Shown one piece after another: positions 18,236 through 23,282 of a DNA stretch of 27,435 bases. Position numbers and translations under genes: made by a program. The notes below the pieces were generated by a model. The model did no database searches, was not told where the DNA came from, and worked only from the letters and a program-made list of their open reading frames with translations. Within the stretch, counting starts at the first letter, position 1, and the number at the start of each line of letters is the position of its first letter. Source of the DNA: a virus; UHGV virus genome UHGV-0266262. The stretch is one strand, 5' to 3'.

Positions 18236-18508
18236 ATGAGTGATTTATTACTAATTAAAAACTGGTTAATTGACCATCATGCACTATCGATTTTCTTTGG
18301 GTTTTTATCGGCTGGGTTATGGATCAAATCAGCAACAGCCAAAGTCAAAACAGGTAGAAGCACCGTTGTAGCAATTACATTTGATGATCCCAAAAAAAAT
18401 GTAGATCTTCACGAATTTTTCTTAACTGCGCGGTTACAGTCTAAATATAACTCATATGCAGCTTTCGCTGCTGCTGCAACTGTGATTTTGCAAATGGCTG
18501 GCTATTAG
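18236..18508 (+). CDS. Small AT-rich membrane protein (accessory gene)
   Basis: About 90 aa from ATG 18236; one hydrophobic helix (ALSIFFGFLSAGLWI); weak RBS; opposite strand to the late operon; low GC. Confidence 0.4.
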   Translation: MSDLLLIKNWLIDHHALSIFFGFLSAGLWIKSATAKVKTGRSTVVAITFDDPKKNVDLHEFFLTARLQSKYNSYAAFAAAATVILQMAGY

Positions 18509-18596
18509 AAAACCTTAACCAAGATATTATTTACCTTTATCAATATCAGTTAACGGCTCAAAGTGTAATGGTTCCACATTCTCCTAATGGAGTTAT

Positions 18597-18722
18597 TTAC
18601 TCGCCCGTCTCGGTAGCCAGCTGCATAAAGCCATTAACCAGCTCAGGCTGACGTCGTGACGTCTTGCCCGTAAAGGTTTCGCCTGTTTGGGTGGTTAACG
18701 TGATTTGGTAGATGTCGGACAT
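18597..18722 (-). CDS. Small hydrophilic hypothetical protein (41 aa)
   Basis: ATG 18722 preceded by AAAGAGG; MSDIYQITLTTQTGETFTGKTSRRQPELVNGFMQLATETGE. Confidence 0.4.
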   Translation of the reverse strand: MSDIYQITLTTQTGETFTGKTSRRQPELVNGFMQLATETGE

Positions 18723-18859
18723 TGAGAGCCTCTTTATCCGCTTGTGGGGATATCCATTATCAAAGCCACTCTGTAAGGAATGGCTTTTGTGATGGCAATA
18801 AAAAAACATCCGTAGGAGGTTAGATTAAGTCTTCACCTTTTTCATATTCTTCGATGTGA

Positions 18860-21028
<2,169 letters not shown>

Positions 21029-21071
21029 ATCTACCTCCCGTATAATGAGAGCTCATCATTAATGAATTTTC

Positions 21072-21089
21072 TTGTCATGACAATGACAA
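21072..21089. promoter_or_regulatory. Operator-like palindrome TTGTCATGACAA plus adjacent TGACAA repeat upstream of the 20798..21028 gene
   Basis: Perfect 12-bp palindrome at 21072-21083 followed by a third TGACAA hexamer; 45-60 bp upstream of the gene start. Confidence 0.3.
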
Positions 21090-21279
21090 ATTATTTCAGG
21101 CTCCATTAGATAGAGCTTTGTAATGAACTGGCTCTTATCTCAACGCAGCCCCTTACCGCGCGCCAGATGCTCAACATCAAGCATCAGCAATGAGATGTTT
21201 AATCTGGATTCACTCCAGAAGTGATCACCACCCTGTCTACAGAGTCAGATGTGAAGGATGATGAGTAAAATTATCGCTA

Positions 21280-21717
21280 TCATCGAAGGCATTGTGTCCT
21301 GATGTATTCCTGCAGGTAGTTAACCTGCGCGGTTATCTTGTCGATTCCACTTCGGAGACGGTAATAATTGAGTTCAGCATCTGCTGTAAGTCCGGGGCTT
21401 TCTCCATCGCCCATGCTGCTGGCTCCGGTCGTTGACTTTGCACAGGTGGCGGCGACTTGCAGGCGCTTACGCCCAGCAGAAACATCAGCACGGAGACTTT
21501 CGATAGTCGCGTTAGCATCAGCAAGCTCCTTTGTATATCTGGCATCGAGTTCTGCTACATCACGTTGACGCTTCTGCATGTCAGCGATAATGGATGCGGC
21601 CTTATCGCGCTGCTCTTTGTAGGCGATGGCGTTATCACGGTAATGATTAACAGCCCATGACAGGCAGACGATGATGCAGATAACCAGATCGGAGATAATC
21701 GCAGTTACTCTGCTCAT
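21280..21717 (-). CDS. Rz: Spanin inner-membrane subunit Rz
   Basis: N-terminal TM helix then coiled-coil periplasmic domain; directly after the endolysin; Rz1 embedded in the +1 frame. Start set at ATG 21717 (alternative 21729). Confidence 0.8.
21333..21518 (-). CDS. Rz1: Spanin outer-membrane lipoprotein Rz1 (embedded in Rz)
   Basis: [20 protein letters not shown] lipobox then Pro-rich region ([16 protein letters not shown]); AAGGAG upstream of ATG 21518. Confidence 0.75.
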
Positions 21718-22211
21718 TGCTGCCCCCACAAACAGACTTCACGCTCAATCTCACGGCGAGTCATCAGCCCTTTCCATTGCTTACCGCCAGCATATGTCCA
21801 GCGACGTAGCTGATCACATGCGCCTTTGATATCGCCCTGGTTTATTTTGCGAAGAAGCGTCGATGTTCTGAAATTGCCAGCACCCACGTTGTAGACGAAC
21901 GAGTAAAGAGCGCCGCGCGTTGTTTCCGGTATATCGACTTTAATGTACGGGTTAATTTGTCTGGCGACCGTGGCAAGGTCTTTATTCAGGAGGGCTTTGC
22001 ATTCTGCTTCGGTATACGTTTTACCGAGCATGATGTCTTTTCCGGTGTGTCCGTGACATACGGTCCATACACCAACAATATCTTTGTATGGTATGTAGCT
22101 GACACCCTCCAGACCATCGTTACCACTTGGGCCAGTGATTAGCACTGATGCTATAGCAATAGCCCCGCCACCAATAGCAGCTGCAACAGCTTTTCGTAAT
22201 GATGGAGGCAT
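21714..22211 (-). CDS. R: SAR endolysin (lysozyme with N-terminal signal-anchor-release domain), phage 21 R-like
   Basis: 165 aa; Gly/Ala-rich weak TM at N-terminus ([20 protein letters not shown]), lysozyme-like body; ATGA overlap with the holin stop. Confidence 0.85.
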
Positions 22212-22426
22212 TATTCACCTCTCGCAGCCTTTCTTCTGTCTTCTCTGATTTTGAAGTACAGATTTGTCAGATAGGTGAGAAAGCCCAACACAAGGCTTCC
22301 AAGCACTCCAATCGCAGCCCACTGTGATGGACTGACCTGATCCAACCACTGTAAAAACCAGTATCCCGCACTACCAGCGGATGTTCCGTAAGCAATGCCA
22401 GTTGAGATTTTGTCCATTGATTTCAT
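22211..22426 (-). CDS. S: Pinholin S21 (class II holin with dual start: MKSM.. antiholin / MDK.. holin)
   Basis: 71 aa [30 protein letters not shown]... matches phage 21 S21 as recalled; GGAGG 7 nt upstream. Confidence 0.9.
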
Positions 22427-22544
22427 AGCAACGCCTCCGCCAGTAACGGATTGCGTAGTTCTTATATTGGGAAGGGGAAAAAAGAAGGCCGCAGCATAAC
22501 TATCACTGATGAATTCAGAATAGCCAGTGGCTACGGCTCAGTAA

Positions 22545-22620
22545 TGGTGCTGGTTAACGGACTTGAACCGCTACCCATTCGCTTACAAGGCGACTGCTCT
22601 ACCATTGGAGCTAAACCAGC
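22545..22620 (-). tRNA. tRNA, 76 nt, CCA encoded; anticodon UGU (Thr) by manual folding
   Basis: Minus strand GCTGGTT-TA-GCTC-CAATGGTA-GAGC-A-GTCGC-CTTGTAA-GCGAA-TGGGT-AGCGG-TTCAAGT-CCGTT-AACCAGC-A-CCA; perfect 7-bp acceptor stem and canonical T-loop. Confidence 0.75.
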
Positions 22621-22625
22621 ATATT

Positions 22626-22700
22626 TGGAGGGGCAGCGTGGACTCGAACCACGATAAGAAGGTTAACGGCCTTCCGTAATGACCTTTATACGACTGACCC
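22626..22700 (-). tRNA. tRNA-like gene, 75 nt, non-canonical (anticodon loop CCGTTAA, apparent GUU, C at position 33; one acceptor-stem mismatch)
   Basis: Perfect T-arm CGTGG-TTCGAGT-CCACG and CCA end; acceptor GGGTCAG/CTGCCCC has one mismatch; 3-bp D-stem. Confidence 0.5.
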
Positions 22701-22746
22701 AAATAAAAAAAGCCACCGTTGCAACTTAAGAGTCACTAACGGCAGC
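22701..22746 (-). terminator. Candidate tR'-like terminator between the late promoter and the tRNA genes
   Basis: Minus-strand RNA GCUGCCGUU...AACGGUGGC (9-bp stem with two G-U pairs, 17-nt loop) followed by UUUUUUUAUUU. Confidence 0.35.
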
Positions 22747-22756
22747 TTACCTTCTA

Positions 22757-22786
22757 ATTATGGCTAAATGGATAATTGCATGTCAA
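22757..22786 (-). promoter_or_regulatory. Candidate late promoter PR' (-35 TTGACA, 18-bp spacer, -10 CATAAT) overlapping the 3' end of Q
   Basis: Sigma-70-like hexamers read on the minus strand immediately downstream of Q, the canonical lambdoid position for PR' and qut. Confidence 0.4.
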
Positions 22787-23282
22787 GACTTTTAACAGCA
22801 ATATGTTTAACTTTCTCAACACGTTTACGCATTTTGAAAGCATTTTGCATTGGTTGGTACAAAACAAATAATGATGCTTTCAGGATGTCGTCAATTTCAT
22901 TTCTACAGGTTGCCAGTGAAGGTTTTCTCCATCCCTCGCCACCACGTCCACACATCTTGCGTGGCTTTGCAGTCGCGTGATAGTAGGATGCAATTGCTCG
23001 CTTAGATGAACCATGAGCGTAGTAGCTGAGGAGGATGCCAAAGGCTTTCTTGTCAATGCACATGACGGAATCAACGACCTGAGAAATCAACATTCCATCA
23101 TCATCATTGCACATTGGCCTTGTCATAATTCTTCCCGGCTCTACGCTCTCCATGAACTTCGCTATTACGCTGCTCATGCGCTTTTCCAGACGACCTGAAT
23201 AAACCCATGCGCCCCACAGTTCAAGCCATCCATTCAGCCAATCGTGCTGTTCTTTGGTGAGGTTTAGTTCTCTTATACCCAT
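22764..23282 (-). CDS. Q: Late-gene antiterminator Q
   Basis: 172 aa; WGAW motif near the N-terminus as in Q proteins of the 82/933W type; located between the nin region and the lysis cassette. Confidence 0.7.

Follow-up and report, generated by a model that had tools for sequence, protein, structure and literature searches.

The palindrome after the lysis genes of a P22-like prophage is probably part of a moron promoter and lies close to a conserved stem-loop element

The locus between the lysis and packaging genes

The window, i.e., the whole 27,435-nucleotide stretch of DNA analyzed here (UHGV virus genome UHGV-0266262), carries a P22-like prophage with its late genes on the minus strand. 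These genes run from Q (23282-22764) through tRNA-Asn, tRNA-Thr, holin (22426-22211) and lysozyme (22211-21714) to Rz, and after a variable region they continue with DUF2560, the small and large terminase, portal, scaffold and coat genes. This layout agrees with that of annotated relatives. The two minus-strand tRNA genes between the Q and holin genes, tRNA-Thr (TGT; 22545-22620) and tRNA-Asn (GTT; 22626-22700), are placed in the same way in Sf6 and phage 21.

Between the stop codon of Rz (21280) and the next minus-strand ATG (21028) lies a gap of 251 bp. The original prediction described it as free of ORFs of 60 aa or more, and indeed none was present in the open reading frame list; but the gap holds a 50-codon pseudogene, a homologue of Sf6 gene 65 (phrog_11822). 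This small conserved ORF follows Rz in P22-like phages. The copy in the window, a small hydrophobic ORF overlapping the Rz stop, carries a TGG-to-TGA change at codon 16. Since the gap contains this decayed homologue, the intergenic distance in intact relatives is really about 110 nt.

Direct reading and a pattern search of the window both located the perfect 12-bp palindrome TTGTCATGACAA, with a third TGACAA adjoining it, exactly as first described. The lysis genes and the gene that follows the gap are both encoded on the minus strand, where the block appears as TTGTCA TTGTCA TGACAA, an unspaced arrangement of two direct copies and an inverted one. The three hexamers lie 44 to 61 nt upstream of the ATG, close to the 45 to 60 bp originally given, and the strong Shine-Dalgarno sequence noted at the same time was found as GGGAGG. 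A perfect TATAAT is also present on the plus strand within the leader of the gene (21041-21046), where it points toward the 3' end of Rz. As a possible antisense start it was set aside, having no acceptable -35 (the best was ACGAAA at 18 nt) and not being called by the consensus scan.

The gene after the gap, referred to below as the moron gene, appears in the window as a truncated ORF of 76 codons (21028-20798). It is split at codon 72 by a copy of IS100, which is flanked by the target duplication ATGTGA (18854-18859 and 20814-20819). Deletion of IS100 and one duplicate in silico restored an ORF of 82 codons ending at 18820. This IS100 copy, which shares 99.8% identity with E. coli copies, is probably not autonomous, since its istB contains an in-frame TAA (20250-20252). 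The top BLAST matches to other IS100 copies continued for 4 to 7 nt beyond the element on its left side, possibly a sign of target-site preference.

In most of the lineages compared, a canonical intrinsic terminator was found within a few nucleotides of the moron stop codon (e.g., AACCGCCTCCGGGCGGTTTTTT), of the form AACCGCCTCCGGGCGG followed by a T-run. The GC-rich hairpin with its T-run was present in loci L003, L005, L008, L011, L012, L013, L020, L021, L027 and L028. Both the window and the E. coli lineage have a decayed terminator, of which the weak hairpin CCTCCTACGGATG followed by T7 is left. Judging by its sequence, the moron cassette of the window is dead or damaged, with an IS100 insertion, a decayed terminator and a nonsense codon in the neighboring ORF; the nonsense codon in the gene 65 homologue and IS100 together suggest a decaying prophage.

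Intact homologues of the moron gene encode proteins of 78 to 82 aa that belong to phrog_35226, a family with no assigned function. The family is tiny: clustering at 90% identity gave 11 clusters, and a set of 1.84 billion proteins contained 8 representatives, of which one is spurious, a repetitive protein. No Pfam or PADLOC match was obtained for the protein, a tblastn search with it against 50,697 phage records returned no match, and neither did a profile search of genome contigs with the protein alignment. The gene was found in E. coli, Enterobacter, Scandinavium, Cedecea and Serratia, and only 10 of 5,426 complete E. coli genomes carried it. Intact copies are present in E. coli LR-29-1 (NZ_AP027515.1, 1379835-1380165) and MEI7BO1-21, among others. 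At each locus it lies on the late strand between lysis/spanin and terminase genes, with the sole exception of locus L012, in which it precedes the lysin gene. The prophages that bear it differ in their terminase type (P22-like, Nu1/GpA, Terminase_2/3/6, and P27-like with HNH). Near-identical P22-like phages that lack the gene (Sf6, CUS-3, epsilon34 and others) are homologous to the window only from about 21107-21117 onward, and Sf6 has a different gene at this site. Moreover, the GC content of the moron gene is 35.8%, versus 47.9% for the window.

The moron protein is strongly acidic and rich in histidine. Its AlphaFold model shows a small alpha/beta fold with a pLDDT of 83.6 (the other four models had values of 47 to 62), and searches of PDB and BFVD with this model gave no significant structural neighbors, the best matches being weak ferredoxin-like folds with E values above 0.08. 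Invariant or near-invariant histidines occur at positions H21, H26, H27, H44, H68 and H71, and the motifs RYFEL, IFGG and LYHI were also noted; together with the acidity, these features may hint at a role in metal binding or as a protein inhibitor. Across the loci compared, no regulator gene was found in or next to the cassette.

Table 1. Positions of the features discussed in the text (window coordinates unless another sequence is named)
Feature	Coordinates	Strand	Remark
Rz (i-spanin) with embedded Rz1	21280..21729	-	End of lysis cassette
Pseudogene of Sf6 gene 65 homologue (phrog_11822)	21140..21292	-	Nonsense codon at 21247-21245
Stem-loop remnant, upstream copy (TTCATTACAAAGCTCTATC/TAATGGAG)	~21101..21128	-	Hairpin top lost
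Third hexamer, TGACAA on + and TTGTCA on -	21084..21089	.	Tandem copy directly upstream of the -35 (minus strand); E. coli lineage only
Perfect 12-bp palindrome TTGTCATGACAA	21072..21083	.	Unique in the window at 0-1 mismatch
-35 hexamer TTGTCA of predicted sigma-70 promoter	21078..21083	-	Consensus scan; TTG kept in 12/13 lineages
-10 hexamer AATGAT	21055..21060	-	17 nt downstream of -35; A2, A5 and T6 invariant in the upstream alignment
Predicted transcription start region	21046..21049	-	Inferred from position relative to -10; 18-21 nt leader
Shine-Dalgarno sequence GGGAGG	21034..21039	-	Direct reading
Moron gene, 5' part (phrog_35226 family)	20814..21028	-	Codons 1-71 plus 2 nt; 82 aa when intact
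IS100 (IS21 family, 1954 bp)	18860..20813	+	In moron gene; 6-bp target duplication
Moron gene, 3' fragment	18820..18853	-	Last 10 codons and stop; joining to 21028-20814 restores the 82-codon ORF
Decayed terminator remnant (CCTCCTACGGATG + T7)	18800..18819	-	Intrinsic terminator follows the stop codon in other lineages
Intact stem-loop copy, CCATCAC-AAAAGCCATTC-loop-GAGTGGCTTT-GATAATGG	18750..18796	-	Downstream of moron cassette
Stem-loop copies, Sf6 (L031)	37833-37875, 38497-38543		Either side of gene 66
Stem-loop copies, HK620 (L034)	18880-18922, 19133-19176
Stem-loop copy, P22 (L033; 40309-40352 in NC_002371)	2810-2853
Hairpin TTATCC-N8-GGATAA	~4850-4900 in L001 and L002; downstream region in L013

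Sequence conservation upstream of the moron gene

The regions upstream of the moron gene were compared across 13 distinct lineages, in which protein identity falls to 54%. The TTG of a -35 hexamer (TTGTCA, TTGCCA or TTGCTA) is conserved in 12 of the 13, and the spacer between this hexamer and the -10 measures 17 nt in all of them. The -10 hexamer, which reads AATGAT, GATGAT, GAATAT or AAAGAT, keeps A2, A5 and T6 (pattern nAnnAT), and its distance to the ATG is constant across lineages at 26 to 28 nt. The columns flanking these conserved positions are about 60% identical. In the most distant member of the family (L028, 54% protein identity), the upstream sequence is unrelated and has the same architecture, TTTACG-17-CATAAT.

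A consensus scan independently called the promoter site in the window and in loci L001, L003 and L028; in L005 and L012 the hexamers are weak, with 6 to 7 of 12 positions matching. In the window, TTGTCA-17-AATGAT matches the sigma-70 consensus at 9 of 12 positions, with a spacing inside the 16- to 18-nt range. Since this single-sequence match is modest and promoter-like matches in this region occur near chance density (4 found versus 2.2 expected), the case for a promoter rests on its conservation. Read in this way, the alignment makes it very probable that the gap contains a transcription signal specific to the gene that follows it.

The palindrome overlaps this predicted promoter. It consists of the -35 hexamer and the next six bases, and the third repeat corresponds to the six bases before the -35. 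The symmetry itself was not shared: all six symmetric pairs of the dyad are present in the E. coli lineage only, versus 0 to 4 of 6 in the 11 non-E. coli lineages, in which the counterparts include TTGCCATGCTAC, TTGTCATGTTAC and TTGCCACCACCT. The Enterobacter type, for instance, has TGCTAC in place of TGACAA, which removes the dyad but leaves the -35. Likewise, the third hexamer agrees with the -35 hexamer at 6 of 6 positions in the E. coli lineage and at 1 to 4 elsewhere. The block from -61 to -39 is 65 to 70% identical to the nearest lineages, compared to 84 to 87% elsewhere in the promoter and leader and 87 to 88% in the coding sequence, and all of the 7 to 8 differences in this block converge on one hexamer. 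The region upstream of the block has diverged equally. Relaxed constraint thus accounts for how much has changed but not for the direction of the changes, and drift alone does not explain well the convergence on a single hexamer.

We asked how often such a sequence is expected. The window contains 4 perfect 12-bp palindromes, versus 7.5 ± 3.0 in Markov-1 simulations; thus, taken by itself, the palindrome is within chance expectation. About 1% of simulated windows contained a palindrome that had a third half-site copy next to it. TGACAA is not enriched in the window (15 found versus 19.8 expected), and, when up to 2 mismatches are allowed, matches to the palindrome number 4 versus 1.6 expected, which is about chance level. 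No second copy at 0 to 1 mismatch was found in the 27-kb window. In a complete related prophage (L030), the exact site occurs once, and no further copy at 0 to 1 mismatch was detected anywhere in it, including the immunity region (cI/cro); the matches with 2 mismatches fall within coding sequence or within the stem-loop element described below. A literature search for a published binding site with the palindrome core returned unrelated matches only.

A stem-loop element that brackets the moron cassette

A second conserved feature was observed on both sides of the moron cassette. It consists of CCATYAC, an A, a variable stem of 8 to 10 bp, a loop of 4 to 8 nt, the complementary stem and GATAATGG. 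In other lineages one copy precedes the promoter and another follows the terminator. The window retains an intact downstream copy and an upstream remnant, the latter lacking 14 internal nucleotides that are present in Sf6 and other loci.

A covariance model of the element was built from 13 copies and found further copies, with E values from 1e-9 to 1e-5, in loci outside the model set. Every match in the complete genomes of Sf6 and HK620, in a whole E. coli prophage and in the window lies between Rz and the small terminase gene, and the same was true for P22 within the scanned segment from Rz to gene 3. In all cases the element is on the strand of the late transcript. Covariation in the stem is strong: among 18 copies, 96.5% of the cells pair and compensatory changes are present at 6 of 8 pairs, and none of 500 shuffles reached the observed covariation score. 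When the partner columns were slid, pairing fell to 27 to 56%. One pair is U-G in 14 of the 18 copies, and scores on the sense strand are about twice those on the antisense strand. The U-G pair and the strand bias point to a function as RNA or single strand, on the strand of the late transcript.

The exact-flank pattern of the element occurs in at least 120 viral contigs. We surveyed the neighbors of 80 of these loci with queries derived from genes of the window. Upstream of the element and on the same strand were 45 of 46 matches to Rz, 24 of 25 to lysozyme, 10 of 10 to holin and 18 of 18 to gene 65-like ORFs; downstream, again on the same strand, were 21 of 21 matches to the small terminase and 14 of 15 to the large terminase. 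Among the 80 loci, no query match was found on the strand opposite the stem-loop.

Rfam 15 contains no match for the element, the only hits in 18400-23000 at E values up to 1 being two tRNAs, and the detailed annotations of Sf6, HK620 and P22 hold no mark for it. In P22 the copy overlaps the annotated "orf25." A literature search with the flanks gave unrelated matches only, and papers on the prophage sRNAs Pas, AgvB and AsxR deal with other loci. A short ORF starting within the GATAATGG flank, 15 codons long in both the window and L003, was also discarded, since it is not conserved (a stop follows after 4 codons in L008, and L005 has no ATG). As a separate observation, a second small hairpin, TTATCC-N8-GGATAA, lies between the stem-loop element and the DUF2560 gene at several loci.

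In Sf6, stem-loops are present at gene 66 but no promoter-like site was found there; the element is thus independent of the moron promoter. A further reading, less likely than not, makes the palindrome promoter part of a cassette system in which the stem-loops around the variable genes between Rz and the small terminase of many lambdoid phages act as portable boundary elements. They might insulate, process or stabilize the late mRNA or else serve as a recombination substrate by which morons are shuffled, and would then be lambdoid counterparts of the PeSL elements of T4-type phages discussed below. Less probable again is that the triple hexamer of the E. coli lineage has recently evolved into an operator within a stem-loop-bracketed cassette of this kind.

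Interpretation and comparison with known systems

Taken together, these observations make it likely that the palindrome is part of the sigma-70 promoter of an uncharacterized moron, an ordinary kind of feature. The left half of the palindrome on the minus strand (TTGTCA, 21083-21078) would provide the -35, followed after 17 nt by AATGAT, and transcription would start near 21046-21049 to yield a short leader with a strong Shine-Dalgarno sequence. The promoter, the AT-rich gene of 78 to 82 codons and the intrinsic terminator would make up a self-contained cassette, which horizontal exchange appears to have put between the lysis and packaging genes of several kinds of lambdoid prophages in Enterobacterales; we therefore regard it as a moron as defined by Cumby, Davidson and Maxwell in 2012 (PMC3594210). 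In the lysogen, host RNA polymerase would transcribe the gene from its own promoter, and during lytic growth Q-antiterminated late transcription would read through it. The palindrome's right half and the additional hexamer would be states of the E. coli lineage at otherwise unconstrained positions (the first bases of the spacer and -41 to -36), most probably acquired by drift or templated mutation and without separate function. The dyad symmetry, confined as it is to this lineage, is probably incidental.

This interpretation retains only part of the dedicated control first proposed for the gene. A sigma-70-type promoter of its own, conserved in 13 lineages, is in line with that proposal, whereas a role of the palindrome as the site of a dedicated regulator is not supported, given that the dyad and third repeat are limited to the E. 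coli lineage, no second site was found and no regulator is linked. The alternative closest to the original prediction is a lineage-specific operator, with the three unspaced hexamers over the -35 binding a host or prophage regulator for conditional repression or activation. We consider this unlikely. It would account for the rarity of a perfect dyad with an adjoining third copy in the simulations, for the position over the -35, which is a classic one for operators, and for the substitutions relative to the nearest lineages, which cluster in the block and converge on one hexamer; yet every other lineage of the same promoter lacks the dyad, and the equal divergence further upstream makes the amount of change a matter of relaxed constraint. 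Every copy seen in the E. coli lineage has an intact block, but this invariance says nothing, because these copies are 95 to 100% identical overall. Of the motif search called for at the outset, the part run on the window and on the complete related prophage, its cI/cro region included, produced no second copy, with near-matches in the window at about chance level, and the literature search found no known operator with this sequence. Autoregulation by the moron protein is improbable as well, since this strongly acidic protein gave no match to a DNA-binding fold, and no regulator gene lies in or beside the cassette.

At the other extreme, the palindrome might be a coincidence with no role in transcription, the gene being expressed only from the Q-dependent late transcript and TTG...A..AT reflecting some other constraint. 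Palindromes of 12 bp at or below chance frequency, the abundance of promoter-like hexamer pairs in AT-rich DNA and the lack of a promoter-like site at the neighboring variable gene 66 of Sf6 are all compatible with this idea. We nevertheless hold it to be quite improbable, as the conserved positions are exactly those that define a sigma-70 promoter, at fixed spacing in 13 lineages, and the nonhomologous replacement in L028 keeps the architecture. Furthermore, most lineages have an intrinsic terminator directly after the gene, an arrangement that makes sense only if the gene forms its own transcription unit. That the block is a structural or recombination signal, i.e., a hairpin of the late mRNA or a boundary for cassette exchange in place of a transcription signal, seems very improbable. 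Conserved stem-loops do bracket the cassette and the palindrome can fold into a small hairpin, but this hairpin has only 4 to 5 bp and is not conserved, and the actual boundary element has another sequence and is situated some 20 nt upstream of the palindrome and again downstream of the gene. The homology breakpoint with phages lacking the gene also falls at about 21107-21117 and not at the palindrome.

For the promoter reading, little changes in what is known of such phages: it adds one more uncharacterized moron family, with a well-supported promoter and terminator, in the variable region between lysis and terminase genes, and it illustrates that a striking palindrome can be merely a -35 box with lineage-specific neighbors. 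The moron family, small, acidic, His-rich, restricted to Enterobacterales prophages and predicted to be transcribed independently, may merit a test of lysogen phenotype. Most worth following up is the stem-loop element, which is possibly more useful than the palindrome finding. It shows strong covariation and a fixed orientation and position (P22, Sf6, HK620 and at least 120 viral contigs), is absent from Rfam and could shed light on the exchange or insulation of morons within late operons.

Among known regulatory sites, the block resembles phage repressor operators in having a short perfect dyad over the -35 that contains ACAA and TTGT. Operators of the 434 type (ACAA-N6-TTGT) are annotated in Sf6, whose region from Q to the lysis genes resembles the window. 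In contrast to these, the half-sites in the window are everted (TTGT-N4-ACAA) and abutting: the sequence reads TTGT-CATG-ACAA, and the nearest forward match, ACAAGAAAATTCAT, lacks TTGT, so a 434-type operator was rejected. The dyad symmetry of repressor operators was found in full (6/6), but the site is single rather than one of a cluster of two or three, it is not conserved in orthologous promoters, and neither further sites nor a linked regulator accompany it. The Pho box, the site of PhoB, consists of direct repeats containing TGTCA that replace the -35, with a period of 11 bp. The block likewise has TGTCA-containing direct repeats at the -35 position, but their period is 6 bp, and this geometry does not fit a Pho box.

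The likeness to morons is closer. In the original prediction, separate control of a late-region gene was called unusual, but independently transcribed morons within late operons are a well-described class (PMC3594210, PMC2629481, PMC7067206). They are well known from late operons of P22-like and other lambdoid phages, in which they are typically expressed in lysogens (PMC2629481, PMC7067206), with P22-like examples in PMC2629481. Compared to HK97 gene 15, lambda bor/lom and the P22 "ant moron," the gene described here is similarly an extra gene in a late operon, patchy among related phages, with its own predicted sigma-70 promoter, its own intrinsic terminator in most lineages and a deviant GC content, and it occupies the known variable site between lysis and packaging genes. 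Several features by which morons are recognized, namely, patchy presence, an own promoter (here predicted), an own terminator and a deviant base composition, were found. Unlike typical morons, the gene in the window is split by IS100 and its terminator has decayed.

For the stem-loop element, the nearest described analogue would be the PeSL (promoter-early stem-loop) cassette of T4-type phages (Arbiol et al. 2010, PMC2839356), in which a strong sigma-70 promoter and a stem-loop terminator are repeated and flank ORFans (PMC2839356). The T4 cassettes belong to a hyperplastic genome region. In contrast to PeSL, the repeat described here is a stem-loop with CCATYAC and GATAATGG flanks, the promoter lies outside the repeat, and most copies have no U-tract. 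In both settings short repeated elements with a stem-loop lie beside dispensable or variable genes, nonessential ORFans in the T4-type phages, and might serve as substrates for modular shuffling.
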